64,000 nt of DNA from Spirochaetia bacterium (GTDB taxonomy: Bacteria; Spirochaetota; Spirochaetia; CADAEX01), in NCBI GenBank assembly GCA_963662265.2, contig CAXXHA010000035.1, positions 184,062 to 248,061 on the forward strand. Direction: 5' to 3'. How positions within the stretch are numbered: position 1 is the stretch's first letter; each line of letters begins with the position of its first letter. Below, piece after piece: positions 6,987 through 53,847 of the stretch. Both the position numbers and the translations under genes were made by a program. The notes below the pieces were generated by a model, which saw only the letters and a program-made list of their open reading frames with translations, was not told where the DNA came from and made no database searches.

Positions 6987-7748
6987 ATGCTTAACAGCAA
7001 TAATATTCCAAAATATGTTCAGATATATAATTATCTTGACGGTCTGATAAAAAGAGGCAGGATTAAAGTCGGTGACCGGCTGCCTACAGAGGAAAAGATC
7101 GCAGCTGATTTCAAGGTGAACAGGATGACTGTAAGGCAGGCTATTGATGAGTTTGTAGTCAAGAAGATGGTTGTAAGAGAGCGGGGCAGGGGAAGTTTCC
7201 TGGTCAGAAACAGGCCGCAGGAGTACCTGTGGAGCTTTAACAACATAACAAGCTTTACAGATTCGATGCTGGATGCGGGAGTAAAGTCTGAATCTGAAAA
7301 TATCCTGATTGAGCTTTCAGAGGCAGATGACAGGGTATGTTCGCTTCTTGCCCTTGATGAAGGCGACAAGAGGGTAATACATACGCTCAGAAGCAAATAT
7401 GCCGAAGATGAGGTTGTCTGCTACGAGAGAAGTTTTCTTCCCTATAATGATTTCAGGGAAATCCTCGATATGAACATAGAAGGATCTCTTTATCATATAC
7501 TTGTTGATAAGTTCAATATAAAGCTTGATCATTCCACCCATACACTGAGCTCTTCGATAACAGGAGAGGAGGAGAGGACTCTTTTTCAGATAGATGAGAA
7601 TGTTTCCTGCATGATGGTTGAATCTGTTACCTATGATCCGGGAAATATCCCTGTTGAAGTCCTCTATACATGCTTCAGGGGAGATAAATTTAAATTCAGG
7701 ATTGAATCAGGTAAATATATTTATCAGAAAAAAGGGGATATCAGTTAA
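6987..7748 (+). CDS. GntR family regulator, HutC/UTRA subfamily (PhnF/PhnR-like)
   Basis: N-terminal wHTH (LPTEEKIAADFKVNRMTVRQA...RGRGSF) and UTRA C-terminus (SLYHIL, FRGDKFKF). Confidence 0.9.
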   Translation: MLNSNNIPKYVQIYNYLDGLIKRGRIKVGDRLPTEEKIAADFKVNRMTVRQAIDEFVVKKMVVRERGRGSFLVRNRPQEYLWSFNNITSFTDSMLDAGVKSESENILIELSEADDRVCSLLALDEGDKRVIHTLRSKYAEDEVVCYERSFLPYNDFREILDMNIEGSLYHILVDKFNIKLDHSTHTLSSSITGEEERTLFQIDENVSCMMVESVTYDPGNIPVEVLYTCFRGDKFKFRIESGKYIYQKKGDIS

Positions 7749-7931
7749 AAAAGGATTGCCGCGATATTGTTCTGATCTTTTTTGTATCTAATGGCTGATC
7801 AGTATCTTTCATTTTTCCCTGTAAATACTTGGAGAATTTACATCCTGTTAAGGAAAATAATCCGTCAGGAATTATATATACATATAAACTGTCCGTGTCT
7901 TGGACACTCTGGATATTCACATACTGTAAAT

Positions 7932-7975
7932 AAAAAAAAGGCGCCAGGTCCTGAGGACCAAGCGCCTTTTATTTT
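7932..7975. terminator. Bidirectional terminator between gntR and the lipoprotein gene
   Basis: A8-GGCGCcaGGTCc-tga-GGACCaaGCGCC-TTTT. Confidence 0.7.
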
Positions 7976-7988
7976 ACATATTGCCGGA

Positions 7989-8294
7989 TTATTTTCCTGC
8001 AGCACTTGTAAAGTAAGTTTTAGCCTGTCCAAGTGGCTGGAGTGATTCTGTGTACATTTCTTTATCGAAATATGTAACTCCGAGATCATAAATACTCATT
8101 GCTCTACCCCATTTACCGAATGACTCAGGTGCGCCTGCTGCTTCAGCTTCAGCTTTAAGACCGTTTACTTCGTCCATAAGAGCCACAGCTTCGTCTTTTG
8201 CAGGATCAGCAGGTGCTTTTGCACTTGATGCACATGCAACAAACATCATTGAGAGCATCGCTACTAACAGGATAAGAAATAACTTCCTTTTCAT
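7989..8294 (-). CDS. Small helical lipoprotein of unknown function
   Basis: Basic N-terminus, hydrophobic stretch and lipobox FVAC; strong RBS GAGGAGG; restricted codon usage. Confidence 0.8.
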   Translation of the reverse strand: MKRKLFLILLVAMLSMMFVACASSAKAPADPAKDEAVALMDEVNGLKAEAEAAGAPESFGKWGRAMSIYDLGVTYFDKEMYTESLQPLGQAKTYFTSAAGK

Positions 8295-8369
8295 AATTCC
8301 TCCTCATTAATGTAGAAAAGTTATTAAAATTGCAAATCACATTCATTCGAGTTATTAGTGAATGATAGA

Positions 8370-8397
8370 TTAACAATTTTTTAACAAAAGATTAACA
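8370..8397. promoter_or_regulatory. Three TTAACA direct repeats with an 11-bp period (Pho-box/OmpR-family-like)
   Basis: TTAACA at 8370, 8381 and 8392, upstream of the lipoprotein gene. Confidence 0.5.
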
Positions 8398-8732
8398 ATA
8401 TGTTTAATTATCACCTGACAATCTGAATTTTGCAAGGAAAATTTTATCAAAACCTGGGTAAAAATAAGCCAGAATAATAGTAAAACACTAAAATTTTCCG
8501 GTTTCTAATCTGATTGTTGATAAATACTGATTATTATAGGTCAATTATCTCCATAAATATTTATAGTAATTAAGATGATAATGATGATAATAATGATGTA
8601 TTTGCAAATATTATCAGTAAATGGAAAGAGCAGTGGATGGGTCGGGTATTTGTGATGACCCCGGATAGTTGTGGATGGGCCGGGTACCTGTAAATGTGTA
8701 AATCAGCTTGAAATCCTGACTGGGAAATTAAA

Positions 8733-8765
8733 TAAAAAAAGGCGTCCATTTAAAATGAACGCCTC
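8733..8765 (-). terminator. Terminator of phnW
   Basis: A run + AGGCGTcCATTT-a-AAATGaACGCCT hairpin. Confidence 0.65.
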
Positions 8766-8835
8766 CAGCTTTTATAAAAAGTCTGTTTTTGCCGCTGAAT
8801 GGTTGCCCGCAGGCTCAGCATAATTGTAGAAAATA

Positions 8836-9987
8836 TTAATATTTAACAGGAATAGCAACACCTGACTCTTTAAGAGCATTTTCGAGTACTTTGAAAGCAT
8901 CTCTGATATCTTCAGCTTTGAGAGCTCCAAGGTTACAGATTCTGAATGTTTCGAGGTCTGCAATTTTACCAGGATAGATTGTTACGCCGTTTTCAAACAG
9001 ATAATCGTGGATTTTTGAAAAATCAAAGTTAGGATCATTAGGATACATGAGTCCAACAACAAGTTTAGTCTGTTTTTCTTCAGGAAGAATTCCTTTGAAA
9101 CCAAGTCTTGTCATTTCTTCGTTGATTACTTTCCATCCGTCCATCAGTCTTTCGTATTTAGGCATTTCACCTTCAGCAAAATGTTCTTTGATTGCCTGCT
9201 CAAGTGAGTAGATAATCTGTACAGGAGGTGTGAAGTTCATCTGACCGTTCTTTTCAAAGAAATCATACTGTCTGTAAAGGTTTGTGTAGTATGATCTTTT
9301 TGGGTAGTCTTTTGATTTTTCGATTTCTGCTCTTTTACCGATGAGGTATGAAACGCCTGTGAAAGCATTCATTCCTTTCTGTGATGAAGCCATGCAGAAG
9401 TCAATGTTGTCTTTTTCTATATCGATAGGAAGAAGACCGTAAGTTGAAGTTGTATCTGTTACGAAAATTGAGTTGTATTTGTGAGCAAGAGCTCCAACTT
9501 CTCTGATTGGGTTCTTGATTCCTGTCCCAGTTTCCTGGTGAACCATGTATACAACAGCGATTTCAGAATCGTTTTTAAGAGCTTCTTCAACTTTTGCAAG
9601 ATCAGGAAGTTCTGTTACTCCGAACTGAAGGTTAACTGTTTCGATTCCGTAGTATTCACATGCTTCTGCAGCTCTTGCATTGTAAAAACCGTTGTTTACA
9701 ATAAGAACTTTTTTATTAGCTGGAACAAGTGATCCGAGGGCTACATCGATATTTATTGTTCCTGAACCTGCAAAAAGAACAGCTACGTGATCTTTTGTAT
9801 TTCCATGAACAACTTTTACAAGGTCCTCACAAACTTTTCTTGCAATAACTGCAAATTCTTCTTCTCTGTGGCAGATATCGCCCTGGATGAGAGATGCTTT
9901 AACAGTTTCAGTAGTTGTAGATGGACCCGGGTTTAATAATATGTTTCTTTTAACAGTTTTATTAACTGTCTGTTCCTTAAGTACCAT
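8836..9987 (-). CDS. phnW: 2-aminoethylphosphonate aminotransferase (PhnW/AepZ family, class V PLP)
   Basis: KRNILLNPGPSTTTETVK, GSGT, VHQETGTGIKNP, SSQK (PLP Lys), QMNFTPPVQ, TIYPGKI..TFRICNLG; strong RBS AGGAGG. Confidence 0.8.
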   Translation of the reverse strand: MVLKEQTVNKTVKRNILLNPGPSTTTETVKASLIQGDICHREEEFAVIARKVCEDLVKVVHGNTKDHVAVLFAGSGTINIDVALGSLVPANKKVLIVNNGFYNARAAEACEYYGIETVNLQFGVTELPDLAKVEEALKNDSEIAVVYMVHQETGTGIKNPIREVGALAHKYNSIFVTDTTSTYGLLPIDIEKDNIDFCMASSQKGMNAFTGVSYLIGKRAEIEKSKDYPKRSYYTNLYRQYDFFEKNGQMNFTPPVQIIYSLEQAIKEHFAEGEMPKYERLMDGWKVINEEMTRLGFKGILPEEKQTKLVVGLMYPNDPNFDFSKIHDYLFENGVTIYPGKIADLETFRICNLGALKAEDIRDAFKVLENALKESGVAIPVKY

Positions 9988-10266
9988 GGCTGGTTACTCC
10001 TCCTTCAAAAAAAACTATATCAAGTATTTTAATCGTATTCTAACATTTAAAGAATATTAGTCAATGCTGATGGATGAAATCCGGTAAAATATTCAGCTCT
10101 TTTTTATCTATATATTATAAAACATAACCAATTGTAATAAAAATCATGAGAAATAGTCTTATTTAGGGGAATTCGGTAAATACACACCTTGATTAAAAGT
10201 TATAAAAAAATAAAATAATATTAGTTGGACAGCATAAATGTGGAGATATTGGATATATTAAAATAA

Positions 10267-10322
10267 TGTAAAAAATTTGTTAAAATTTTCCTTGACAGAA
10301 TTCACTATCAACAGGTTAAAAT
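10267..10322 (+). promoter_or_regulatory. Promoter of the TAXI receptor with upstream TGT(A/T)AA half-sites
   Basis: TGTAAA 10267 and TGTTAA 10278 (11-bp period), TTGACA 10292-10297, TAAAAT 10317-10322 (19-bp spacer). Confidence 0.4.
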
Positions 10323-10384
10323 AGATATATAAAGTAATTTCTTTATAGAGGGGTGTTGCCCTTTGAAAATTTGAGGAGGAAATA

Positions 10385-11362
10385 ATGAAAAGAAGTCTTT
10401 TGTTGATTCTTTGTATTCTTGTTCTCGGTTCTTTTGTTTTTGCTGAAGGCCAGGGAGAAGGATCAGGCAAAACTAAAAAACACGCAATCATGGGATCATC
10501 AAGCTTAGGAGGAAGCTGGTACCCAACTGCTTCAAGAATTGCTGGTGTAACTATGAAATACACAGATTCTGTTGTAACTGTACAGTCATCAGGTGGTGGT
10601 ACAGAAAATATCAGACTTATGAAACAGGGTCAGTACCAGATGGGTATGGCTGAATCTAACATAATGGTTTATGGATACCAGGGAATCAGAGATTTTGACG
10701 GCGATCCCTACCCAGAACTTACATTTGTAACTCAGCTTTATCCCCTTATTTTCCAGGCTCTTGTAGCAAAAAGCACAGGCTGGACTACACTTGCAGACCT
10801 TAAAGGTAAATCATTTTCACCAGGTTCACCAGGATCAGGTGATGTTGCAGCATGGGAAGAAGTTTTTGACGGCGGTTTTAACATGCAGCCTGAAGACCTT
10901 ATCTGGAAACCACTTTCACATAATGAAAGATCAATGGCTTTCAAAGACAGAGTTCTTGATTCAGTAGGTTATGAAACAGCTTGCCCTGCAGGTTCAATTC
11001 TTGAAGCTACAGCTCAGAACCCAGGAACTATTCTTTCAATCGGTGGAAAAAACAGAGATCAGCTTATTGCTAAATATTCATGGTATGACCCATGGGTAAT
11101 TCCTGCTGGAACATACAATGGTCAGGACGAAGATGTTCAGACTATTATCCAGGGTGGTGGAATCATTGCTGATGCTAATGTAAGTGAAGAACTTATTTAC
11201 GACTATGTAAGCGCTATGTACGGACCTGGCCTCGAAGCAGTTCAGTCAGTTCATGCTAACGCTCATTACATTACACTTGACACAGCATGTGACGGTAGAG
11301 GACCTGTTCCAATACATGCAGGTGCTGCAAAATTCTACAAAGAAAAAGGTGTTTACAAATAA
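10385..11362 (+). CDS. TAXI family TRAP transporter solute receptor (paralog 1)
   Basis: Signal peptide; GGSWYP, SSGGGTENIRL, GSPGSG, IPAGTYNGQ, PIHAGAAKFYKEKG. Confidence 0.92.
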   Translation: MKRSLLLILCILVLGSFVFAEGQGEGSGKTKKHAIMGSSSLGGSWYPTASRIAGVTMKYTDSVVTVQSSGGGTENIRLMKQGQYQMGMAESNIMVYGYQGIRDFDGDPYPELTFVTQLYPLIFQALVAKSTGWTTLADLKGKSFSPGSPGSGDVAAWEEVFDGGFNMQPEDLIWKPLSHNERSMAFKDRVLDSVGYETACPAGSILEATAQNPGTILSIGGKNRDQLIAKYSWYDPWVIPAGTYNGQDEDVQTIIQGGGIIADANVSEELIYDYVSAMYGPGLEAVQSVHANAHYITLDTACDGRGPVPIHAGAAKFYKEKGVYK

Positions 11363-11380
11363 GATTTGTGGGATTTATAT

Positions 11381-11409
11381 GAAGCCGGATATTTATCCGG
11401 CTTCTTTTT
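11381..11409 (+). terminator. Terminator/stem-loop after the TAXI receptor
   Basis: GAAGCCGGATA-tt-TATCCGGCTTC-TTTTT. Confidence 0.75.
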
Positions 11410-11902
11410 CTGTATATATTGACTGTTTTTTGTTAAAAGGTATAAAAAGCCGGCAACATATCGACAGAAAAACCATTCGTATTTAAAAAACCTGGCAGAA
11501 TATCTCTGCAATTTATAGAAAAAATATTTTTTTGATTAGGTTTATACTTCCGGAATTGGAGGCTGGGAGATTCTATAAACTCTGTTTGCATTAAAATGTA
11601 CTTTTATAAAATGGCAAAAAGTGCAGATGAAAAGCATTCAGAAAATATTTCTTATACCGAATAGTATGGGGAATAGCTGATAGAGGAATTTAATACGGCA
11701 AAATTCCTGTATCACAAAAATCTGATATTACTTCAGGTAGGTATTCTGCCTCGCAGAATGCCAGTCTCATGCAGAAATAAATATACTACTTGTAAAAGTT
11801 TCTGTGAATGAGGCACTTGTCCCGCCAGGGGCATCTGTCCCGTATCGGGGCAGAAAAACCCTGTTTCAGGGTAAAAAACTCATATAGAAGGAAAGAAGAT
11901 TA

Positions 11903-14107
11903 ATGAGTGACGATTTGATGAGTAACCTCGATTACTCGAAAATGACAGAGGCGGAAATTGCTGAAGCAAAAGCAATTGAAGCCAGAGCTAAAGAGCTTGA
12001 AAAAGCTACTTCAGGCCACAGGGAGTGGAATAAGACCGGTCTTTTGGTAATTTCAGCAATTGCTATTGTTTACGGCTTGTTTCACATGTACACAGGTTTT
12101 GCTGGAATGTTCACTGCTCTCAGGCAGAGATCAATCCACCTTAGTTTTGCGCTTGTAATTTGTCTTATCAAATTTTCTGCAAACAGAAACAAAGATGAAA
12201 AGTCTGAACCAGTTATTCCTTACATCTTACTTGGTGTAGGTGCATGGACATCTGTTATTCTGACACTTCAGAGTAAAAAGATGCTTTCTTATGGTGCTGT
12301 AATAGGCGCTCTTGTTGTAATAGCTGCTATACTTTTTGTAGCAAGAATATTCACAAAGAAAGCAAGAGTGAAAGCTGGTGTTCAGGTTGAAAAGAAAATG
12401 GTCTGGTATGACTTTGTATTTATAACATTTGCACTTGTAGGATGTTACTATATTGCAATAAATACTGATGCAATTCTTGAAAGAGCTGGTATTGTATACT
12501 TAAAAGACCAGATTATCGGTGTGCTGCTTCTTCTTACCGTACTTGAAGCAACAAGACGATCAATCGGACATGTTCTCATGTTTATCGGTATTGTAATGCT
12601 TTTCTACTGTAGATTCGGATATGTATTTCCAGGCGTTTTCTGGCATCCAGGATTCCCTGTCAGCATGATAATCAGACACTTTATTCTTATCGACTCAGGT
12701 CTCTGGTCAACACCTCTCGGTGTATCTTCAAGTTATATATCACTGTTCCTTCTCTTAGGTGCAGCTCTTCATGCAACAGGTCTTGCAGAGCTTCTTCTTA
12801 AGATTGCGAAAGGTATCTTTGGTGCGATGGTTGGTGGACCTGCTAAGATGGCAGTTGTTGCATCATCAATGTTTGCTATGATCTCAGGATCTTCAACTTC
12901 AAACGTAGCAACAACAGGTATTATCACTATTCCTCTTATGAAGAAAACTGGTATTCCTCCACAGCTTGCAGGATCAATCGAAGCAGCAGCTTCTATGGGT
13001 GGACAGATTACTCCTCCTGTAATGGGTGCTGTAGCATTCATCATGGCAGAGTTCCTCGGTATCAGTTATGTAACTGTTATTGCAGCAGCAGCTCTTCCTG
13101 CAGCTCTTTACTACACAGCTGTATTTACAATGATTCACTTTGAATCACATAAAATCGGTGCTTATGGACTCAAGAAATCAGAACTTCCTGAATGGAAGGG
13201 TGATGCTCTTAGAAAAGGATATCTTTTCCTTCCTGTAATTGTACTTGTATACATGCTCTGTACTGGTTACACACCAATGAGAGCTTCATTCAACTCATTC
13301 TGGATTGCAATCGCATTAAGTATGTTCAGAAAAGAAACAAGACTTACTCCTAAGAAGTTCTTAAATGTTATTGATTCAGCAGGTCAGACTCTTACAGTAG
13401 TTGCTATCCCATCAGCTATCGCTGGTTTCGTAGTAGGTACTGCAACTCTTACAGGTCTTACTCCTGCTCTCTCATCATTCCTTGCAATGATTGCTCAGGA
13501 TAAACTTATCCTTACACTTATCATTACACAGGTTATGTGTCTTGTACTTGGTATGGGTGTACCAACAGTAGCTAACTATATCCTCATGACTATCATGACA
13601 GTTCCTGTAATGATCAGAGCCGGTGTTCCGCCACTTGCAGCACACCTTTTCTGTTTCCACTTCGGAATCATGTCAGAGCTTACACCTCCAGTAGCTATTA
13701 CTTCTTACACAGCTTCTGCTATTGCAGGCGCGCCGTTCTGGCCGACAGCTGGTAACGCTGTAAGACTTGCAGCTGTTGCATACATCGTACCTTACATCTT
13801 TGTATACAACACATCACTGCTTCTCGGAATGGAGCCGTTTACAGGTGGAACATTAGTAACTATAGTGATGGCGCTCCTTGGTGCGGTAACATTCGGAACA
13901 GCTATGGCTGGATTTATAAAGAGGCGAATGTATCTCATAGAACAGATTATACTGGCTGTTGCAGCTATTGCGATTATTGTACCGCGAGCACTTCCCAGAC
14001 TTGCAGGTATTTTAATTATCGGCGGTATTATTACAATGCAGTTTATCTATAAGAAAAATCCTAAGAACTACAAGGTTCCTGATAAGAAACCTGCTTATGA
14101 TGCATAA
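11903..14107 (+). CDS. TRAP transporter fused permease (4TM/12TM DctQM, TAXI-associated)
   Basis: LEATRR, GGPAKMAVVASSMFAMISGSSTSNV, EAAASMGGQITPPVMGAVAFIMAE, LGMGVPTVANY, ELTPPVA. Confidence 0.93.
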   Translation: MSDDLMSNLDYSKMTEAEIAEAKAIEARAKELEKATSGHREWNKTGLLVISAIAIVYGLFHMYTGFAGMFTALRQRSIHLSFALVICLIKFSANRNKDEKSEPVIPYILLGVGAWTSVILTLQSKKMLSYGAVIGALVVIAAILFVARIFTKKARVKAGVQVEKKMVWYDFVFITFALVGCYYIAINTDAILERAGIVYLKDQIIGVLLLLTVLEATRRSIGHVLMFIGIVMLFYCRFGYVFPGVFWHPGFPVSMIIRHFILIDSGLWSTPLGVSSSYISLFLLLGAALHATGLAELLLKIAKGIFGAMVGGPAKMAVVASSMFAMISGSSTSNVATTGIITIPLMKKTGIPPQLAGSIEAAASMGGQITPPVMGAVAFIMAEFLGISYVTVIAAAALPAALYYTAVFTMIHFESHKIGAYGLKKSELPEWKGDALRKGYLFLPVIVLVYMLCTGYTPMRASFNSFWIAIALSMFRKETRLTPKKFLNVIDSAGQTLTVVAIPSAIAGFVVGTATLTGLTPALSSFLAMIAQDKLILTLIITQVMCLVLGMGVPTVANYILMTIMTVPVMIRAGVPPLAAHLFCFHFGIMSELTPPVAITSYTASAIAGAPFWPTAGNAVRLAAVAYIVPYIFVYNTSLLLGMEPFTGGTLVTIVMALLGAVTFGTAMAGFIKRRMYLIEQIILAVAAIAIIVPRALPRLAGILIIGGIITMQFIYKKNPKNYKVPDKKPAYDA

Positions 14108-23895: not shown

Positions 23896-25506
23896 ATGAT
23901 GTCTGGAAAAGTGCTATTAGGTGATGAAGCTATTGCTCTTGGTGCAATTCATGCCGGTCTTTCCAATGCTTATGGGTACCCCGGTACGCCATCTTCAGAA
24001 ATAATGGAATATCTTCTCGGGTATTCTAAAAAAACTGGTAATATTCATGCTGCATGGTGCAGCAATGAGAAAACTGCATATGAGGATGCTCTCGGAGCAT
24101 CTCTTGCCGGTAAAAGATCAATTGTAACAATGAAACATGTGGGGCTTAATGTAGCTGCAGACCCTTTTGTTAACTCTGCTCTTCTGAAAATAAACGGGGG
24201 ACTTGTCCTTGTTGTTGCCGATGATCCGGGAATGCATTCTTCCCAGGATGAACAGGACTCAAGGTTTTATGCTGATTTTGCAAAGATACCCTGCTTTGAA
24301 CCTGTGAACCAGCAGGAAGCCTATGAAATGACCAGAGAGGCTTTTGAAGTTTCGGAGAAATTCAATATTCCTGTAATGATAAGAATTGTCACACGGCTTG
24401 CCCATTCAAGAGCTGTGGTAGATACAGGCGGGGAAAGAGCTCAGAATGAGAAGAAGAAAGCAGAAGATAAAAATACATGGATGCTTCTTCCTGCATATGC
24501 GAGAAAGCAGTGGGTTACACTTCTTCAGAAAAATGAAAAGTTTGTTGAATATTCTGAAAAAACAGATTTCAACCCTCTTTATATCAATCCTGATTATAAA
24601 AAAGTCGGTGTTATTACTTCCGGTCTCGGTAAAAACTACTATGTAGAAAATGTCGATGATCTTGAAGAAAAACCGTCACATCTCCATGTCGGAACATATC
24701 CTCTTCCTGTGGATAAAATCAGAAAACTTGCAGATAATGTTGAAAAACTGGTTCTTCTTGAAGAGGGGTATCCTTTTATTGAATCAAAACTCAGGGGGAT
24801 ACTGCCAGGTAATATTGAGATTGCAGGAAAGCTTGATGAGCAGGTTCCTCCTACAGGAGAACTTAATCCTGACAATGTAAGACCTGTTCTTGGTCTCGGG
24901 GAAAGGGCGTGCCTTGCAGCTGTAGAAGCTGTTCCGGGAAGACCTCCCCAGCTCTGTAACGGATGTCCGCATATTGATTCCTATGAATCAATTACAAAGG
25001 CTCTTGAAATATATGATGAGAGTGTAGTTACTTCAGATATCGGCTGTTATGCTCTCGGGGCACTTCCACCTTATTCTGCAATTGAAACAATTATCTGCAT
25101 GGGAGCTTCTGTCGGAACTGCAAAAGGTGCTGCTGAATCAGGTCTCAAGCCTGCTGTAGCTGTAATCGGGGACAGTACTTTCTTCCATTCAGGAATCAAT
25201 TCACTTGTTGATGCGATTGCTGCAAATACACCAATGACTCTTGTTATTCTTGACAACTGGATTGTTGCAATGACAGGCGGTCAGGAGACAATTGTTCCTT
25301 CATCAAGAATCGAAAGTGTTATTAAAGGGCTTGGTGTGGATCCTGATCATATAAAGACAATTGTACCTATGAAAAAGAACCTCGAGGAAAATGTTAAAAT
25401 CCTCAGAGAGGAGTTTGATTACCAGGGTATTTCAGTAATTCTTTCTGTAAGGGAATGTATTGAGGAAACCAAAAGACGGCTTAAAAGGGAGAAAAACAAA
25501 AAATGA
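23896..25506 (+). CDS. iorA: Indolepyruvate:ferredoxin oxidoreductase alpha subunit
   Basis: YPGTPSSEI, MKHVGLNVAADP, DDPGMHSSQDEQD, RPPQLCNGCPH, DIGCY, GDSTFFHSG. Confidence 0.92.
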   Translation: MMSGKVLLGDEAIALGAIHAGLSNAYGYPGTPSSEIMEYLLGYSKKTGNIHAAWCSNEKTAYEDALGASLAGKRSIVTMKHVGLNVAADPFVNSALLKINGGLVLVVADDPGMHSSQDEQDSRFYADFAKIPCFEPVNQQEAYEMTREAFEVSEKFNIPVMIRIVTRLAHSRAVVDTGGERAQNEKKKAEDKNTWMLLPAYARKQWVTLLQKNEKFVEYSEKTDFNPLYINPDYKKVGVITSGLGKNYYVENVDDLEEKPSHLHVGTYPLPVDKIRKLADNVEKLVLLEEGYPFIESKLRGILPGNIEIAGKLDEQVPPTGELNPDNVRPVLGLGERACLAAVEAVPGRPPQLCNGCPHIDSYESITKALEIYDESVVTSDIGCYALGALPPYSAIETIICMGASVGTAKGAAESGLKPAVAVIGDSTFFHSGINSLVDAIAANTPMTLVILDNWIVAMTGGQETIVPSSRIESVIKGLGVDPDHIKTIVPMKKNLEENVKILREEFDYQGISVILSVRECIEETKRRLKREKNKK

Positions 25507-26066
25507 AATATGACATAATCCTTGCAGGGGTCGGCGGACAGGGTGTATTATCACTTGCCGCAATTATTGCAACAGGAGCAATGAAAGACGGACTTAAAGT
25601 AAGACAGTCTGAAGTTCACGGCATGGCGCAGAGAGGCGGTGCTGTTCTTTCACATATGAGGATTTCCGATAAGGAGATTGCAAGTGACCTTGTTGCCAAG
25701 GGAACAGCTTCTCTTATTATAAGCATGGAGCCTCTTGAGGTTGGAAGGTATGTAGATTACCTTGCACCTGACGGAGGGATTGTTACTGCATCAGAACCGG
25801 TTGTAAATATACCGAACTATCCTGAAATTGAATCAGTATATGAGAAGCTTAAAAAATATCCCGATATAAAGATTGTTGATTCAGCTTCACTTGCAAAAGA
25901 GGCAGGTTCTTCAAGAGCTACAAATATGGTAATTATCGGGGCTGCTGCTGACAAGCTTCCTGTAAAAGCTGAAACTCTTAAAGCAGCTATTAAAGATCTG
26001 TTTGCCGCAAAGGGGCAGGATATTGTTGATATCAACATAAAAGCCTTTGAGCTTGGACAGAAATAG
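25503..26066 (+). CDS. iorB: Indolepyruvate:ferredoxin oxidoreductase beta subunit
   Basis: GVGGQGV, SEVHGMAQRGG; overlaps the iorA stop. Confidence 0.92.
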   Translation: MKYDIILAGVGGQGVLSLAAIIATGAMKDGLKVRQSEVHGMAQRGGAVLSHMRISDKEIASDLVAKGTASLIISMEPLEVGRYVDYLAPDGGIVTASEPVVNIPNYPEIESVYEKLKKYPDIKIVDSASLAKEAGSSRATNMVIIGAAADKLPVKAETLKAAIKDLFAAKGQDIVDINIKAFELGQK

Positions 26067-26410
26067 ATTTTTTTGACTGCATCAAGACTGATGCTGATTA
26101 GATACTGTAAATAACAGAAAAACAGTCTGTTCCTTTCCGGAGCAGGCTGTTTAATTTAAATAAGGGAATCCCGTAAATACTTGTCTGTTTGCGGGAGATT
26201 AATTTTATTTATAAGTTTAAATATGCCGATATATTTTATATTGCATTAAAGAAATAATGAAGCCACGGAAATATTGATTCTGCGGCAGACATTCATAAAC
26301 AGGTAAAAAAACATTCTTCTTTAAAAACGTCACTTTAGCAGTGATTTTATCCTGGAGAAAGCCGGGTAGGGAACTGCGGAAAATATTTTGTAATACAACA
26401 GGAAAAGAAT

Positions 26411-27721
26411 ATGGATATTAAATACTGGGACAGGGAAATTGAAACTATAGACCGTGAAGGTCTTGAGAAAATTCAGCTTGAAAATCTTAAGGAAACTATT
26501 TACTGGGCTCTTAAGACCCCTTTTTACAGTGAAAGGCTTAAAAGTGTCGGGATTACATCTCCTGATGATATCAAGACACTTAAAGATATTAAAAAAATCC
26601 CTTTTACAACAAAGGATGATTTAAGATCTGCCTATCCATATGACATGCTTGCTGTTCCGAAAGAAGAGGTTGTGAGGCTTCACGCATCAAGCGGAACAAC
26701 AGGAACTCCTACAGTTATATATCATACCCAGAGAGACATGGACAGGTGGACAGACCTTGTAGCAAGGTCTGTAACAGGAATAGGCTGTGACAGCAGCGAT
26801 GTGTTTCAGAATATGATGACTTACGGACTCTTTACAGGGGGGATCGGGCTTCATTACGGCGCAGAGAAGGCAGGTCTTCTTGTAATCCCTATAAGTTCCG
26901 GAAATACAAAGAGGCAGTTTAAATTCATGAAGGATTTTCAGTCTACACTTGTGCATGCTACTCCGAGTTACATGCTTCACATGTATTCAAAACTGGAAGA
27001 GGAAGGGTATTCCCTTTCTGATTTCAATATTAAAAAGTCTCTCGGGGGTGCTGAACCGCACTCAGAAGACATGAGAAAGAAGATTGAAGATCTTTATAAT
27101 ATTGACATGTACAATAATTACGGCCTCAGTGAAATGAACGGACCGTGTGTTGCAACAGAGTGTGTCTATAAGGATGACATGCATGTGTGGGAGGATTCCT
27201 TCTATCTTGAGATGATAAACCCTGAAACGCTTGAAGATGTTGAAGACGGAAATGATGGTGAAGTTGTTTTTACAACACTGAGAAGACAGGGAACACCTCT
27301 CTTGAGGTACAGAACACGTGACCTCTCTGTTGTTAATCCTGAACCCTGCAAGTGCGGTAGGACTCACAGAAGACTCTGCAGGATAAAGGGAAGAAGCGAT
27401 GATATGCTTATCATAAACGGCGTCAATGTATTTCCTTCACAGATTGAAGAAGTACTCATGAAGCTTCCTGAAGTAGGGACTAACTATCTGATTGTTGTGA
27501 AAAAATCCGGGGCCCTCGACAAGGTTACTGTAAAGGTTGAAATAGGGCCTGCTGCTTTCAGCGATGATGCCAGGGATCTTAATGAACTAAGGGCCAGGAT
27601 AAAGGAGCTTCTCAAGGCGGCTCTTCTCATATCTCCGAATGTTGAGCTTCATGAACAGGGAGTTCTTCCTGTACATGAAGGAAAGGCAAAGAGGGTTGTT
27701 GATGAAAGGATCCGGGAATAG
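26411..27721 (+). CDS. paaK: Phenylacetate--CoA ligase
   Basis: HASSGTTG, YGLFTGG, YGLSEMNGP, LRYRTRD, GRSDDMLIINGVNVFPSQIE. Confidence 0.92.
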   Translation: MDIKYWDREIETIDREGLEKIQLENLKETIYWALKTPFYSERLKSVGITSPDDIKTLKDIKKIPFTTKDDLRSAYPYDMLAVPKEEVVRLHASSGTTGTPTVIYHTQRDMDRWTDLVARSVTGIGCDSSDVFQNMMTYGLFTGGIGLHYGAEKAGLLVIPISSGNTKRQFKFMKDFQSTLVHATPSYMLHMYSKLEEEGYSLSDFNIKKSLGGAEPHSEDMRKKIEDLYNIDMYNNYGLSEMNGPCVATECVYKDDMHVWEDSFYLEMINPETLEDVEDGNDGEVVFTTLRRQGTPLLRYRTRDLSVVNPEPCKCGRTHRRLCRIKGRSDDMLIINGVNVFPSQIEEVLMKLPEVGTNYLIVVKKSGALDKVTVKVEIGPAAFSDDARDLNELRARIKELLKAALLISPNVELHEQGVLPVHEGKAKRVVDERIRE

Positions 27722-27734
27722 GTAAGAAAACAAA

Positions 27735-29219
27735 ATGGGTTTTGAAAGTTCTGCAAAAATACTGCTTGAAGAGTGTCCCTCGTTTACAGACAGGGGATTT
27801 GATACTGATATAGAACTTTATACTTCTCTTATAGGTGATAAAAAATATGTGCTTGCAAAGAGCCTGTATGAAAAGAAACTCATACCCCGTTATCCTGATG
27901 AAGCAGTAAGAATCAGGATAATAAGGTATTTCCGGAAGAATGATTACAGGTTTAAAGAGATCTACGGCAGTGCTGTCAAGGAACTTCATCACAGGATAAT
28001 ACTTTCCGTTAAAAAACTCATTGATTATATTTCATCAATATTTGAAGAAAATACATCAAATCCCTACGAGCTTTTAAGGCGAATAGATAAGGCCCAGCAT
28101 GTGATTCCTTCGGAAAAAACAGCAGCAATCCGGTTTATAAGAAAACTTTCAAGATACTCAGTACTGCTGAATCACAGGACTGAGTCATATGCAAAAGCCT
28201 ATGATATTTTAACCAGGTATTATGACAACACCCTTTTTGTCAAAAGAATTGTTCCCAAAAAGTTAAAGAAAAAAGAAATATCCCAGGAATACAAGCCTGA
28301 AAAAAAGAAGAAAAAAATAACAATTGATCTTGATGCGGTTGAATTCTCTGATCAGGATATTGCAATGATCTGTATAAATTCGGCAATAACAAAACGAACA
28401 TACAAGGTGCTTGCTTACTGCAGGCTGTACTGGAAGCAGATACATAATCAGGACTTTGAAAAAAAGATTTTCCTTTATTCACGTAAATACAATACACTTC
28501 ATTTTAAAATATTCACTTTTGTAAAAAACGGCAGGATAAAAAAACTCGGCGATGATGTAATTCTTCTGGAACTCTACAGTCTTATCTCAAGGGGGTACAG
28601 GTACAGTGTTCACGAGGACCTTCTCATGCAGAAGATCTGGAGGAAAATCAAACCGGTTGATGTTTTGAAGAGGAAAAAACAGGGGGACGGAGGATCTGTT
28701 TCTGCTGGTTTCGGGAAATCCGGCAGCAGGACGACTGGAATTGATAAAGCTGCTGTAAAAACCGGAACAATTGGCGGAACAATCGGGGACGGAGGCAGGA
28801 AAAATGCTGCCGCCAAACAAAAAATTACCGTCCGGAAAAACAAAATAATAAAGCCTGGAAAAAAACAGCTCCGGATAAACGAGATACACAGGCAGTCACT
28901 TAAGAAGAAGCTTGATCTCCTGTCATTCCGTAATGTTTTTGATGCGCATGAAGTATTCAGTTCTCTCTTGCCGGGATATATAGAAAAATATATTGTAAGG
29001 CACAGGAAGAAAGGGAGCGGGAAAGATCCCTACATACAGAAAGGTGCTCTCTACATAATCCAGAACTTTGTAAAAAACAACTATGATTCTTTAACATATG
29101 ACTGGAACAGCAGCATTGAAAAACAGGAAGTTGCAAATATTGGATTTCTGGTCCCTGAAATTGATACAATAATAGCAATGTGTCTTGAAGAAGTCAGGAT
29201 GCGGCGAGCTACGGTTTAA
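27735..29219 (+). CDS. Hypothetical basic protein (494 aa)
   Basis: Long ORF 13 bp after paaK; no recognised motif; G/K-rich linker at about 28670-28870. Confidence 0.75.
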   Translation: MGFESSAKILLEECPSFTDRGFDTDIELYTSLIGDKKYVLAKSLYEKKLIPRYPDEAVRIRIIRYFRKNDYRFKEIYGSAVKELHHRIILSVKKLIDYISSIFEENTSNPYELLRRIDKAQHVIPSEKTAAIRFIRKLSRYSVLLNHRTESYAKAYDILTRYYDNTLFVKRIVPKKLKKKEISQEYKPEKKKKKITIDLDAVEFSDQDIAMICINSAITKRTYKVLAYCRLYWKQIHNQDFEKKIFLYSRKYNTLHFKIFTFVKNGRIKKLGDDVILLELYSLISRGYRYSVHEDLLMQKIWRKIKPVDVLKRKKQGDGGSVSAGFGKSGSRTTGIDKAAVKTGTIGGTIGDGGRKNAAAKQKITVRKNKIIKPGKKQLRINEIHRQSLKKKLDLLSFRNVFDAHEVFSSLLPGYIEKYIVRHRKKGSGKDPYIQKGALYIIQNFVKNNYDSLTYDWNSSIEKQEVANIGFLVPEIDTIIAMCLEEVRMRRATV

Positions 29220-29270: not shown

Positions 29271-29750
29271 CTAATAAACTGAATCCGGAGGATCGACAAG
29301 TTTGAAAATTTTATTCTTCAAATATGCAAGGCCGCAGTATTTATAATCTTCTGCTTTTTTAACAAGACCTGCTTTTACCGGATTGTTGTTTATGTATTCA
29401 TATACAGCATAAAGTTGCCTGTATGATTCAATTATTATACTCTTGAATCTGTCATACCAGACATGCCCTTTGTAGCTATATATTTTGTTGAAAACCACAG
29501 CAAATTTGCTTAATATCCACTGCATAATTTTTGATAAATCTGATTTCGGGCGGGGTTTAATCAATAAATGAATATGATTGGTCATTACACAGAAATTAAT
29601 AATTTTAAATCGGTATTTCTTCTTTGCATCTTTGAGAATCTTGATAAAGATATCTTTTATATTATCCTTTTCAAAAATAAATTCCTGCCGGTTAGATCTT
29701 GCAATTACATGATAAGTAGCATTTTCTTTTTTGTTTCTTGGTTTTCGCAT
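29271..29750 (-). mobile_element. REP-associated tyrosine transposase (RAYT, IS200/Y1-like)
   Basis: YHVIARSN, HUH motif MTNHIHLL, W.DRFKS, catalytic Y in YINNNPVKAGLV, YKYC. Confidence 0.85.
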
Positions 29751-48390: not shown

Positions 48391-48411
48391 TATAATACTC
48401 CCTGCTCTTTT

Positions 48412-48942
48412 TTACCTTTTCAGTTCAAATGCTTTCTTGAAAATCCATACTATTTTTGAAACAAGTGGAAGTTTCCCTATCTTTTTGATTATTGTACTGG
48501 ACATTATTCTGTCTCTGATTTTTTCCCTGTACAGCTTTAAAAGCAGTTTAAACAGGAAAAAGAGAGGAACTGATACAGCAATCATGGTAATCAGGCTCCC
48601 GATAACAACTGTGTTGTTGAATCCTGTGAAGGGGAGAACCGGCATGCTGTTCAGTTTTATGAGAATAGGTTCGAGACTTTCTGCTGTGAGGATTCTGTAA
48701 CCGATAAAATCAAAAAAGGGATCGAAGAGCAGCGCCAGTGGTTTCAGTACTGCTGCCATAATCATCTCTGCACCGAAATTGATTTTAAGAAAAAATGTTA
48801 CTGCCAGTATTGCAAACCATGTAATATTTCCGGAAGGAAGCATTGCAAGCAGTACACCCAGGGTAAGTGCCGCAGCTACTTCTCCCGGCCTGTTGTTTGA
48901 ATTCAAAGCTGCAATAGTCTTAATTATCCATTTTATAATCAT
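48412..48942 (-). CDS. TIGR03546 (DUF2062-like) membrane protein
   Basis: ALNSNNRPGEVAAA, N.PVLPFTGFNNTVVIGS. Confidence 0.8.
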   Translation of the reverse strand: MIIKWIIKTIAALNSNNRPGEVAAALTLGVLLAMLPSGNITWFAILAVTFFLKINFGAEMIMAAVLKPLALLFDPFFDFIGYRILTAESLEPILIKLNSMPVLPFTGFNNTVVIGSLITMIAVSVPLFFLFKLLLKLYREKIRDRIMSSTIIKKIGKLPLVSKIVWIFKKAFELKR

Positions 48943-51155: not shown

Positions 51156-52541
51156 ATGGAAGTTTTAGGGAAAAAGGAATTGGCGGTAAGTCGGGAACAG
51201 GGCGATATTAACACGAGTGATGAAAGACATAAGTACTGGGAGCGGAATCTCAGTAAAGAGGCAAGGGAAATATTTGAAGAGGATAAGAAATATTTCCTTC
51301 ATCAGGCTCTTTCAACTCCTGTACTGAATGTTCTGAAAAAGACTGACGGAATTTATATTGAAGACTGTGACGGCAGGAAATATATAGATATGCATGGTAA
51401 CGGTGTACATAATGCAGGATTCAGCAATCCGGAAGTAATTGAAGCTGTTAAAAAGCAGCTTGATGAAAAATTGGCATTTACTCCCAGACGTTACACAAAT
51501 GCCCCAGCAGTAAAACTTGCAAAAAAACTTGTTGAGATAACTCCTGAAGGTCTTGATAAGACTCTCTTCTGTCCCGGGGGGTCTGAGGCAAATGAAATGG
51601 CCCTTTCCCTTGCAAAGCAGGTAACAGGGAATTTCAGGACAATCTCATTCTGGGATTCATTTCACGGGGCAGGATATGCTGCATCAAGTGTAGGCGGGGA
51701 AGAGCACTTCAAGGGTGGACAGGGCCCGATGGTTCCCGGCGCATTTAAGGTTGAATTTCCCAACTATTACAGAAATCCATGGGGTTTTGAAAATGAAGAG
51801 CAGGTAGACAATGAATGCCTCAGGCAGATGGAGCTGATTTTCAGGAGGGAACCTGGTGTTGCAGCTGTTCTTGGTGAGCCTGTATCTGCAACCCCTGTAG
51901 TTCCCGGAAAGAATTTCTGGGGCAGGGTGAAGGAGTTGGCCCACAGGTATGGCGCTCTGCTTATTTTTGATGAGGTTATTGAAGGATTCGGAAGAACAGG
52001 CAAGATGTTTGCATGTGAGCATTTTATTACACCGGATATACTTGTGCTGGGAAAATCAATGGGGGGAGGTCTTGTACCGTTTGCCGGGATTGTAACAAAG
52101 TCTGAATATGATGTTCTTCACCACAGATCTATCGGTCATTATACACATGAGAAAAATCCTCTCTGCAGTGCAGCCGGGCTTGCAGAGATTGAATATATTG
52201 AAAAGAACAATCTTGTTGAAAATTCCAGGATCGTCGGAGAATATGCGATAGAGAGGTTCAATGAACTTAAAGCGAAACACCGGATAATCGGCAATGTGGC
52301 TGGTGTAGGCTGCCATCTGGGTATTGATCTTGTGAAGGACCGGAATACAAAAGAACGAGCTGTCGTGGAAGCTGAGTCTGTCATGTATAAATGCATGGAA
52401 AAGGGACTTGCTTTCAAGCTTATAGAAAGCAATATAATTACACTGCGTCCATCAATTCTCATCAGCAGGGATGAAATGGGGTGGTGTATTGATACTATAG
52501 AAGAAGCTATTATTGAAGTTGAGAATGGTAATTACTATTAG
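51156..52541 (+). CDS. pbfA: (R)-1-hydroxy-2-aminoethylphosphonate ammonia-lyase-like class III PLP enzyme
   Basis: Class III fold (DEV, LGKSMGGG) with the PbfA-type N-terminus REQGDINTS...FLHQALSTP...DMHGNGVH, plus PRRYTN, SFWDSFHGA and GHYTHEKNP. Confidence 0.78.
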   Translation: MEVLGKKELAVSREQGDINTSDERHKYWERNLSKEAREIFEEDKKYFLHQALSTPVLNVLKKTDGIYIEDCDGRKYIDMHGNGVHNAGFSNPEVIEAVKKQLDEKLAFTPRRYTNAPAVKLAKKLVEITPEGLDKTLFCPGGSEANEMALSLAKQVTGNFRTISFWDSFHGAGYAASSVGGEEHFKGGQGPMVPGAFKVEFPNYYRNPWGFENEEQVDNECLRQMELIFRREPGVAAVLGEPVSATPVVPGKNFWGRVKELAHRYGALLIFDEVIEGFGRTGKMFACEHFITPDILVLGKSMGGGLVPFAGIVTKSEYDVLHHRSIGHYTHEKNPLCSAAGLAEIEYIEKNNLVENSRIVGEYAIERFNELKAKHRIIGNVAGVGCHLGIDLVKDRNTKERAVVEAESVMYKCMEKGLAFKLIESNIITLRPSILISRDEMGWCIDTIEEAIIEVENGNYY

Positions 52542-52728
52542 TTTTTGAACCTGAAAAGCTGCAGTTTTGAAACTGATGATCCTGTATATAAGTAAATACT
52601 CCACGAATGTGTGATATATCCGGCTTGCCGGGTATATCTCCTTAATTTAATTATATTCAGAAACCTGACATGAAATAGGAGCTTCGATATTGAATATCCG
52701 TTTCAATTCCATTAATAAACAGATAACC

Positions 52729-52816
52729 CTAACACAAATCTAACAGAAACCTAACATAAGTTGCAATAAATATTGATTAATTGTTAGATGAATGTTAAAT
52801 GTTAGGATAATGTTAG
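52729..52816. promoter_or_regulatory. Pho-box-like arrays: CTAACA x3 (11-bp period) and inverted TGTTAR x4
   Basis: CTAACA at 52729, 52740 and 52751; TGTTAG/TGTTAA at 52782, 52793, 52800 and 52811. Confidence 0.55.
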
Positions 52817-52872
52817 GAAGTGTATACAGTTCCAGTATACATCCATCATTAAAACAACTCAAGGAGAAGGTT

Positions 52873-53847
52873 ATGAAGAAAACATTGATTATTCTTGCTA
52901 CGGTATTGCTTTTTTCAGCACAGGTTTTTGCAAACGGAACAATGGAAGGAAACGGAGCAGTAAAAAAACACGCAGTAATGGGTGTATCAGGACTTGGAGG
53001 CAGCGCTTATCCTGTAATGGCAGTTATCAGCGGACTTGTTGAAAAGAATACTGATTCAAAAGTTACAGTTCAGTCATCAGGCGGCGGGACTGAAAATATC
53101 AGACTCATGCAGCAGGGACAGTACCAGATGGGGTACTCAGAAGCAAATGTGATGGCTTACGGGTATAATGGAACAGATCTTTTCGAAGGTAATCCTTACA
53201 AGGATATGAGATTTGTAGCAAATGCATATCCGCTTGTATTCCAGGCAGTAGTTCATAAAAGCAGCAAAATCAAGAATCTTGAAGATATGAAAGGAAAATC
53301 TTTTTCACCGGGCTGTGCAGGTTCAGGTGATGAATCAGGATGGGCGGAAATCTTTAAAGCAGCTGGTCTTGAAAAAGAAGATCTTATCTGGAAACCTCTT
53401 ACTCATACAGAAAGAGCAATGGCATTTAAAGACCATGTACTTGACAGTGTAGGGTATGAAACATCATGTCCTTCAGGATCAATTCTTGAAGCGTCAGCTC
53501 AGAATCCTGTAACAATTCTTGCAATCACAGGTGATGTAAGAAAAAGAGTATTTGAAATGTATCCCTGGTATTCTCCATGGACTATTCCTGCAGGATCTTA
53601 TAACGGCCAGGATGAAGAAGTTGAAACATGTGTAGTAGGTGCTGCTATTATGGCAGATGCCAATCTTAATCCTGAAGTTATTTATGACTGGCTTTATGCT
53701 ATGTTTGATACTGATATGAAATCAGTACAGAGTGTACATGCTATGAGTAAATTCATCACTCTTGAATCTGCTCTTGACGGCAGAGGTCCGGTTCCTTTTC
53801 ATGATGGGGCTGCAAAATACTATAAAGAAAAAGGCATGATCGATTAA
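52873..53847 (+). CDS. TAXI family TRAP solute receptor (paralog 2, no adjacent permease)
   Basis: RBS AAGGAG before ATG 52873 (track starts at 52792); long identical blocks shared with 10385-11362 (VTVQSSGGGTENIRLM, DLIWKPL, VLDSVGYET, DGRGPVP). Confidence 0.92.
   Translation: MKKTLIILATVLLFSAQVFANGTMEGNGAVKKHAVMGVSGLGGSAYPVMAVISGLVEKNTDSKVTVQSSGGGTENIRLMQQGQYQMGYSEANVMAYGYNGTDLFEGNPYKDMRFVANAYPLVFQAVVHKSSKIKNLEDMKGKSFSPGCAGSGDESGWAEIFKAAGLEKEDLIWKPLTHTERAMAFKDHVLDSVGYETSCPSGSILEASAQNPVTILAITGDVRKRVFEMYPWYSPWTIPAGSYNGQDEEVETCVVGAAIMADANLNPEVIYDWLYAMFDTDMKSVQSVHAMSKFITLESALDGRGPVPFHDGAAKYYKEKGMID

Follow-up and report, generated by a model that had tools for sequence, protein, structure and literature searches.

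The stretch of DNA analysed here, which we call the window, is 64,000 nucleotides of a Spirochaetia genome (G000:C35:184062-248061; assembly of 3.77 Mb, 90.6% complete). Near its start lies phnW, a gene for a transaminase of 2-aminoethylphosphonate (AEP), the commonest natural phosphonate. Transcribed away from it are the gene for a periplasmic receptor of the TRAP-associated extracytoplasmic immunogenic (TAXI) family, SBP1, and the gene for a tripartite ATP-independent periplasmic (TRAP) permease in which the Q and M subunits are fused. An earlier note, made from sequence alone, had described this arrangement and proposed that the transporter imports AEP. The coordinates of all its open reading frames were reproduced exactly, the frames and curated hidden Markov models (HMMs) confirm the divergent layout, and the shared control region of about 400 bp is present, with the start codons of phnW and SBP1 397 bp apart. 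Comparative genomics supports AEP as the probable substrate. The features discussed are collected in Table 1.

Table 1. Features of the window, with positions counted from its first nucleotide
Feature	Position	Strand	Details
GntR/HutC-type regulator, probable regulator of the module	6987..7748	+	Pfam GntR and UTRA
Terminator-like hairpin just 3' of phnW	8738..8766	-	Consensus scan; 13 pairs, then a T run
phnW (AEP:pyruvate transaminase, AepZ-inclusive branch)	8836..9987	-	383 amino acids; Pfam Aminotran_5
Divergent control region of phnW and SBP1	9988..10384		397 bp; promoter-like hexamers on both strands
SBP1, TAXI-family periplasmic receptor, proposed to bind AEP	10385..11362	+	325 amino acids; TIGR02122 and Pfam NMT1_3
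Terminator-like hairpin after SBP1	11381..11404	+	10 pairs, 6 of them G-C, then TTTTT; a 500-bp spacer follows
Fused Q-M TRAP permease	11903..14107	+	734 amino acids; TIGR02123 and Pfam DctM
PbfA (PbfA1)	51156..52541	+	NF049939, 647 bits (cut-off 525)
SBP2, orphan TAXI receptor, proposed to bind 1-hydroxy-AEP (HAEP)	52792..53847	+	TIGR02122, 235.2 bits; paralogue of SBP1

The phnW product scores 409.2 bits against TIGR03301, the PhnW-AepZ model (cut-off 360.8), and 311.6 bits against NF010006 (cut-off 296). It thus belongs to the broad AEP transaminase family, which confirms the identification as PhnW on the AepZ-inclusive model. SBP1 is well above the cut-offs of TIGR02122 (211.4 bits against 84.35) and Pfam NMT1_3 (224.6 bits against 27), and its N-terminus, judged by eye rather than by a predictor, is hydrophobic and signal-like. 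The permease, whose gene begins 540 bp downstream of SBP1, reaches 585.8 bits with TIGR02123 (cut-off 320.65) and 279.6 bits with Pfam DctM. The hairpin 3' of phnW, a consensus-scan match that carries no evidence of function, suggests that phnW is monocistronic in the window, while the hairpin behind SBP1 is consistent with the receptor being transcribed more than the permease. An Rfam scan of positions 7700-12000 at E<=0.1 gave no match. Contigs nearly identical to the SBP1 gene occur in four metatranscriptome runs from three studies, labelled marine sediment and wetland, a weak hint that SBP1 is transcribed. These contigs lie mostly on the receptor gene and, as contigs cannot rank genes, their thin cover of phnW and the permease gene was not used.

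The GntR-type regulator upstream is below the cut-offs for PhnF (112 bits against 156.8) and PhnR (84.7 against 296.75). Orthologues 54-91% identical to it lie near phnW in three of the four genera of the window's family, a synteny from which it is probably the regulator of the module. In a relative of the same genus (L007:4161-7689), a family-8 solute-binding protein gene and a sensor diguanylate cyclase gene are inserted between the GntR gene and phnW.

The pairing of phnW with this type of receptor was followed through the 20 genomes of the window's Spirochaetia family, which fall into four genera, and through a sample of 401 genomes of the phylum. The receptor clade is narrow. Only 66 cluster representatives match SBP1 at E<=1e-40 among 5.8 billion proteins, every one of them with a source name is from a spirochaete, and the clade occurs in 3 of the 401 sampled phylum genomes, all three from the window's family. 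Within the family, clade receptors are present in all 20 genomes and PhnW-AepZ is over cut-off in 17, with 18 full genes. By coordinates, 13 of these 18 phnW genes lie within 6 kb of a clade receptor. The remaining five all belong to one genus; in the three inspected, a permease of the clade (59-70% identical) faces phnW with no receptor between them and a GntR gene near. Two further phnW genes, truncated at contig ends, also adjoin clade receptors. At other TAXI receptors a PhnW homologue at E<=1e-20 was found at none of 149 loci, 80 from metagenomes and 69 from genomes. The 80 metagenome loci came from a scan with the clade alignment, are all at most 32% identical and include no clade member, and serve as controls only. 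Among 77 further TAXI loci, one has a class-V aminotransferase 25% identical to PhnW and none has a closer one. The phnW-TAXI pairing is far beyond chance: it recurs in all four genera, and none of the other TAXI loci inspected shows it.

A maximum-likelihood tree built from 31 clade receptors with 8 outgroups places 25 of the receptors in a core clade (support 98/98) made up of six well-supported subclades, each with one type of neighbour. Three, one per genus, are linked to PhnW and one is linked to PbfA1. Another is tied to a saccharopine-dehydrogenase-like gene together with either PbfA2 or eutABC, and members of the last have a PhnX-like hydrolase on one side and an HpnZ-like alcohol dehydrogenase on the other. 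In all, 22 of the 25 core receptors stand beside PhnW, PbfA or the PhnX-like and HpnZ-like pair, two stand beside eutABC and one is cut by a contig end; these counts are biased upwards because several loci were fetched for holding phnW, a bias that the count made from the phnW side does not share. The earlier note had proposed that the neighbourhood of this TAXI clade would be telling, and the link to PhnW, two PbfA paralogues and the PhnX-like and HpnZ-like pair is indeed strong and specific.

The last of these arrangements, in the order PhnX-like hydrolase, receptor, permease, HpnZ-like dehydrogenase, is found in three relatives but not in the window's assembly. With TIGR03351 the hydrolase reaches 149.5 bits (below the cut-off of 218.9) and with TIGR01422 108.3 bits, and the dehydrogenase is over cut-off for TIGR03366 (332.6 bits against 328.1). 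At L230:8862-15003 (genome G411, of the same genus) and at L229 (G414) the operon also holds a 317-residue protein of unknown function. Elsewhere in the clade, the permease gene is tandemly duplicated behind the phnW-linked receptor in genus g154 (L221, L225, L226, L139), and G414 has two SBP3-type receptors in tandem beside PbfA2.

The eut-linked members, in genus g2 (L119:9556-16457 and L121), are receptors of the SBP3 subclade followed by the saccharopine-dehydrogenase-like gene, eutA, eutB, eutC and eutL. No eut genes were found in the window's genome, despite the dehydrogenase-like gene beside SBP3 and PbfA2. A possible ligand for the eut-linked receptors is an N-substituted ethanolamine such as N-(2-hydroxyethyl)alanine, which we take to be a compound of rumen ciliates; a literature search gave no confirmation of this. 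Since a sister subclade sits in an eut operon, the theme of the clade appears to be small 2-aminoethyl or C2-phosphonate compounds rather than AEP alone.

An outer subclade (L142:8828-14979, L143, L144, L122, L227) has a LysR gene divergent from the receptor, then a racemase-like gene (PRK07475, 249 bits, cut-off 231), the permease and an ornithine-cyclodeaminase/SbnB-like gene. In L143 and L227 phnW comes next, and coordinates indicate the same in G406:C116. Farther away, TAXI receptors at most 32% identical, mostly from Proteobacteria, stand beside class-III aminotransferases 27-35% identical to PbfA at 9 of 77, 5 of 80 and 19 of 69 TAXI loci (in the first set L037, L039, L040, L042, L045, L049, L053, L055 and L067). 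These may form a wider group for omega-amino compounds.

The window's genome contains two more receptors of the clade, each beside a second kind of aminophosphonate enzyme. The earlier note had pointed to one of them as a close paralogue next to such an enzyme at 51156-53847. This is SBP2, which follows PbfA1, is identical to SBP1 at 191 of 323 residues (59%) and scores 231.4 bits with Pfam NMT1_3; its orthologues follow PbfA in two further genomes. The other, SBP3 (TIGR02122, 196.6 bits; 53% identical to SBP1), is on contig C15, divergent from a second PbfA gene, PbfA2 (G000:C15:66236-67555; NF049939, 681.9-682.2 bits against a cut-off of 525), with a LysR regulator and the saccharopine-dehydrogenase-like gene near. 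No solved structure of a PbfA was found to compare with either copy. The three receptors of this genome are therefore 53-59% identical, with phnW, PbfA1 and PbfA2 as their respective neighbours. By tblastn its other TAXI receptors are at most 30% identical to SBP1.

No permease gene was found among the genes flanking SBP2 or SBP3. The four other fused permeases of the genome are at most 38% identical to the one in the window and each stands beside its own distant TAXI receptor (tblastn), leaving the window's permease as the only one of its clade. SBP1, SBP2 and SBP3 may thus share it. A metallo-beta-lactamase-fold gene beside PbfA1 (50120-50740) was considered as an orthologue of the one beside the eut-linked receptor in relatives and was rejected because the two are 25% identical.

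The best solved relatives of SBP1 are TtGluBP (1US4/1US5; 136.3 bits with 1US4) and VcGluP of Vibrio cholerae (8S4J; 125.6 bits). They belong to the same HMM family and likewise work with a fused Q-M partner, but they are only about 30% identical to SBP1, their gene context is amino-acid metabolism instead of phosphonate enzymes, and in the window's genome three receptors appear to use one permease. We transferred the pocket residues of VcGluP, as given in the accessible text of PMC11574862, to SBP1 through the 8S4J alignment at this level of identity. The equivalents are S40, S44, W45, Y46, G72, E90, Y119, L121, G152, D153, Y196, E197 and A199. VcGluP residues Y45, S75, Q93, E125 and M201 correspond to W45, G72, E90, L121 and E197, so that the pocket of SBP1, as aligned, is not of the VcGluP glutamate/glutamine type (Y45, S75, Q93, E125), and the changed positions include those for the ligands of the glutamate alpha-carboxylate and amino groups.

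Several of these changes follow the subclades. The serine that binds the alpha-carboxylate is glycine throughout the core clade, whereas the outer subclade with the racemase-like gene keeps serine. All 13 core receptors of the three PhnW-linked subclades (12 beside phnW, one cut by a contig end) have E197, as do all three PbfA1-linked receptors, in which W45 is replaced by alanine or serine. The two receptors beside HpnZ-like and PhnX-like genes have N153 and Q197 in place of D153 and E197, and their substrate should lack an amine. Within the limits of a low-identity alignment, the pattern at SBP1 fits a ligand that bears an amine and no carboxylate.

No phosphoenolpyruvate (PEP) mutase gene was found in the window, as the earlier note had stated for the neighbourhood of the locus, or elsewhere in the assembly (90.6% complete). 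PEP mutase is also over cut-off in none of the nine genomes of a genus that keeps phnW, receptor and permease together. As the module is retained both in that genus and in the window's genome, it is independent of biosynthesis, and the earlier view that a catabolic role is the likelier one is upheld. In a relative of the same genus, a PEP mutase island of about 14 kb (L220:1260-15065, genome G411) corresponds to about 7 kb without PEP mutase at G000:C35:115918-122891, where the contig is continuous.

To our knowledge all described AEP importers are ATP-binding cassette (ABC) or major facilitator superfamily (MFS) systems. The window system follows the same logic as PhnCDE, PhnSTUV, AepXVW and AepSTU (ABC) and AepP (MFS), with an uptake system beside phnW, and it shares with the ABC importers their dependence on a receptor. 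It differs from the ABC importers in belonging to another superfamily, in being a secondary TRAP transporter rather than driven by ATP, and in having a receptor of the NMT1_3/TAXI fold family, not of the PhnD type. In the window's genome the best PhnE match scores 66.3 bits against a cut-off of 216.7, and tblastn with PhnD gives only matches of 21-25% identity, so the system does not fall in the known AEP importer families. Neither this genome nor the nine genomes of the rumen-type genus have PhnE over cut-off, which leaves the TRAP system as the only candidate importer seen in them.

Our literature search, which left most subscription journals outside it, found no described TRAP or TAXI importer of phosphonates, and others may have priority. 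A 2023 review on the degradation of phosphonates refers to TRAP systems in no more than general terms in its accessible text (PMC10574752). The characterised TAXI receptors covered by the accessible literature bind glutamate or glutamine, and orthophthalate and other acids are reported as substrates of TAXI transport in the available part of PMC11574862. EtoX (Csal_0678), a DctP-type TRAP receptor for ethanolamine, is reported in the available part of PMC10132767 not to bind phosphoethanolamine. EtoX shows that a TRAP system can carry a small 2-aminoethyl compound without a carboxylate, and a sister subclade of SBP1 heads an eut operon; EtoX is DctP-type, works with separate Q and M subunits and is from Proteobacteria, whereas the window system is TAXI-type, has a fused permease and is from Spirochaetia.

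What happens after the transaminase is less straightforward. The genome has PhnW and PbfA, as in the PhnW-PhnX and PhnW-PhnY-PhnA pathways with PbfA; both enzymes should yield phosphonoacetaldehyde, and LysR and GntR regulators are near. In contrast to those pathways, PhnX, PhnY, PhnA and PhnJ were not found in the window's genome, with PhnX, PhnY and PhnA all below cut-off (best PhnX match 48.5 bits against 220), and across the family PhnX, PhnA and PhnJ are over cut-off in 0 of 20 genomes each. The same PhnX search does find phnX beside phnW in two other spirochaete genomes. The window's genome does give two weak PhnX-like HAD matches (48.5 and 47.6 bits), which we regard as generic HAD proteins. 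A HAD-IIB hydrolase downstream of phnW in genus g2 was weighed as a stand-in for the phosphonatase and is a weak lead, because in other genera it is not next to phnW and it also occurs in genomes that lack PhnW. In g2 (L118:6483-7883, L140, L223, L224) phnW is followed by a 176-residue protein of no known family and then this hydrolase, which occurs in 13 of the 401 phylum genomes, its closer copies partly co-occurring with unfused PhnW and CCLa (see below).

A candidate for the missing step comes from a genome of another family, G024, which has no PhnX. On one strand it encodes PhnW, a PbfA2-like protein, PhnD, PhnC, two PhnE proteins, two citryl-CoA-lyase-like proteins, CCLa and CCLb, and an acylating aldehyde dehydrogenase; on the opposite strand are a LysR gene and a PbfA1-like gene. 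This is the enzyme set of the window's genome, but with PhnD-PhnC-PhnE-PhnE as transporter. PhnC (319.7 bits, cut-off 266.1) and both PhnE proteins (260.3 and 243.3 bits, cut-off 216.7) are over cut-off, and PhnD is under its equivalog cut-off (222.5 bits against 261.1) and over that of its subfamily (218.9 against 112.05). The dehydrogenase is closest to SauS (NF047625, 520.1 bits, below the cut-off of 600), and both would convert a 2-substituted acetaldehyde to a coenzyme A (CoA) thioester. CCLa and CCLb score 129.3 and 107.1 bits with the citryl-CoA lyase model NF004869 (cut-off 212), and the match to the solved 6hxp is 70.6 bits. Compared with citryl-CoA lyase and citrate synthase they are below cut-off, short (298 and 356 residues), paired, and set in a phosphonate-transport context.

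The window's genome has the same three genes in the same order at G000:C13:30303-33890, their products 76%, 54% and 64% identical to those of G024, the curated-model scores given above being those of the G024 proteins. A HAD hydrolase and a LysR gene follow the dehydrogenase (G000:C13:30303-35739, equal to L237:8304-13739), and this LysR shares 50% identity with the one encoded in the G024 phosphonate cluster. The block is kept in all four genera of the family. CCLa occurs in 18 of the 20 family genomes (14 of 14 of high quality) against 7 of the 401 sampled phylum genomes, and in three other spirochaete families it lies directly behind phosphonate ABC genes: phnE in G024, a phnE fragment and phnC.

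A model of the CCLa-CCLb dimer scored 0.80 with the best control at 0.00, the runs agreeing in at least 81% of contacts and the partner predicted local distance difference test (pLDDT) being at least 74. Of 78 solved complexes 51 attain the 0.80 mark, and so do 2 of 108 mismatched pairs. As citrate synthases are known dimers with solved structures, the pass could be due to likeness alone. Compared with the citrate synthase of the genome, CCLa keeps the histidine of the 'EH' motif and CCLb the aspartate of the 'VD' motif, which we take to be the enolising residues. Since PhnX, PhnA/PhnY and carbon-phosphorus (C-P) lyase were not found, phosphonoacetaldehyde would probably be handled by this C13 module. 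It is possible, if short of probable, that oxidation of phosphonoacetaldehyde gives phosphonoacetyl-CoA, a thioester that then acts as an electron sink for C-P cleavage to acetyl-CoA and phosphate. In the searchable literature the term phosphonoacetyl-CoA was found only in a preprint on biosynthesis.

We put at roughly 0.6 the probability that the locus serves a spirochaete pathway for C2-aminophosphonates as its module for uptake and the first step, and import of an AEP-type phosphonate by the TAXI-TRAP system is the best reading of the transporter. From the identities of the genes, their conserved and clade-specific linkage and the absence of canonical cleavage genes, we infer the ligands, a permease common to the three receptors, the coupling ion and all the chemistry of the cleavage step, as follows. 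SBP1, secreted to the periplasm, would bind AEP and pass it to the fused permease, which would import it driven by an ion gradient. PhnW, probably under the control of the GntR-type regulator, would move the amino group to pyruvate, giving phosphonoacetaldehyde and alanine. The orphan receptors SBP2 and SBP3 would feed related substrates through the same permease, most likely (R)-1-hydroxy-AEP or a conjugate, which the PbfA lyases would also convert to phosphonoacetaldehyde. The acylating aldehyde dehydrogenase of the C13 module would then make phosphonoacetyl-CoA, from which phosphate and acetyl-CoA would be set free by the CCLa/CCLb heterodimer, possibly together with the neighbouring HAD hydrolase. 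The full proposal, in which a TAXI-TRAP system of three receptors and one permease is the entry to an undescribed anaerobic route that needs CoA and not PhnX, and a heterodimer of the citrate synthase fold, perhaps with the HAD protein, cuts the C-P bond, is a doubtful extension of this.

Several findings weigh against AEP uptake and degradation, and three alternatives were considered. It is unlikely, though the likeliest of these alternatives, that the substrate of the transporter and of the PhnW-like and PbfA-like enzymes is some non-phosphonate 2-aminoethyl compound (taurine, phosphoethanolamine, ethanolamine or an opine-like conjugate) and that the phosphonate names are over-annotation. 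The phnW product fails the strict catabolic model TIGR02326 (298.9 bits against 400.8) and has no PhnX partner; no known route for removing phosphonoacetaldehyde was found in the genome, and no genome of the family has PhnX, PhnA or PhnJ over cut-off. The candidate replacement, itself hypothetical, has a dehydrogenase that most resembles SauS at a sub-cut-off score, and in the window's family it adjoins an ordinary citrate synthase gene, which in the window's genome is on the opposite strand. One sister subclade of receptors, with its saccharopine-dehydrogenase-like gene, heads an ethanolamine-utilisation operon, so that clade members need not bind phosphonates. Also counting against AEP uptake, the outer subclade, 40% identical, adjoins racemase-like and ornithine-cyclodeaminase-like genes, and the aligned pocket, mapped at about 30% identity, offers no cationic side chain for a phosphonate. 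Against such a substrate stands the meeting of four curated phosphonate-linked families at one receptor clade: PhnW-AepZ, PbfA (twice) and the HpnZ-like family are over cut-off, and PhnX is the best match, under cut-off, of a fourth. The downstream module follows PhnC or PhnE genes in three families, and in G024 these are over phosphonate-specific cut-offs. The closest solved relative of the window's PhnW is the Tde1415 AEP transaminase domain from Treponema denticola (6pd1, 267.9 bits), ahead of Salmonella PhnW (1m32, 204.4 bits), and the accessible text of PMC6697681 reports that Tde1415, from a biosynthetic cluster, converts AEP to phosphonoacetaldehyde.

That same relative, a PntC-AEPT fusion, lends some colour to a role in salvage or synthesis, which we consider improbable: the transaminase would run towards AEP for surface phosphonoglycans or lipids, and the TAXI system would import HAEP or hydroxyethylphosphonate, which PbfA and other enzymes would convert to phosphonoacetaldehyde. 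Many spirochaete PhnW-AepZ matches lie in frames of about 600-680 residues, as would fit such fusions. Among the 20 family genomes, 5 have PEP mutase over cut-off, both relatives of the same genus included, in one of which it is 59 kb from phnW, and with no C-P hydrolase found phosphonoacetaldehyde would otherwise lead nowhere. The enzyme in the window, though, is unfused, the module persists without PEP mutase both in its genome and in the genus of nine, and phnW of G024 is clustered with an uptake system and an acylating aldehyde dehydrogenase, a catabolic layout. No better odds attach to the idea that the genes are inherited side by side without a functional link and that the substrate of the TAXI system is an ordinary amino or organic acid. 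Every phnW-receptor pair comes from a single family of related genomes, which are kin and not independent; phnW and the transporter are separate transcription units, and no convincing operator or palindrome common to the control regions of phnW/SBP1, PbfA1 and SBP3/PbfA2 was found. Two observations weigh more generally against the AEP reading: SBP1 and the permease gene are parted by a terminator-like hairpin and about 500 bp, and a PhnE-type ABC permease is over cut-off in 6 of the 20 family genomes. Against a merely inherited adjacency, the window's genome has three separate loci at which one of the paralogous receptors stands by a phosphonate enzyme, and relatives hold a fourth. Order and orientation are rearranged between genera with the link kept: in one genus the receptor is gone from the site and the permease still faces phnW, and another has receptor, racemase, permease, cyclodeaminase and phnW as a single operon. 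The aligned pocket also has no ligand for the alpha-carboxylate of glutamate.

If AEP uptake by this system is correct, it would add a third, ATP-independent route to the known ones, be the first phosphonate importer of the TRAP type, enlarge the very small set of TAXI substrates, and provide a worked example of several receptors using one TRAP permease. If the cleavage proposal holds as well, the enzyme that cuts the C-P bond would be of a new class. The breakdown of AEP by strict anaerobes is a long-standing gap; in a genome that keeps PhnW and PbfA, and in which the C-P-cleaving enzymes searched for were not found, it now has three candidate proteins. AEP was first isolated from rumen protozoa, going by the reference list of PMC10590968. 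By their record titles, carriers of the system include metagenome-assembled genomes of rumen and gut spirochaetes. Given these carriers and the sediment and wetland RNA sequences, the system may matter for phosphonate turnover in anoxic habitats.

Other parts of the window hold genes apart from these loci. Positions 23896-29219 encode a two-gene pair resembling 2-oxoacid:ferredoxin oxidoreductase, an AMP-binding ligase and a 494-residue protein without a Pfam match, and they are followed by an IS200-like transposase (29271-29750). At 46411-48942 is a pair from the TIGR03545 (165.6 bits, just below the cut-off of 173.35) and TIGR03546 families, both of unknown function.

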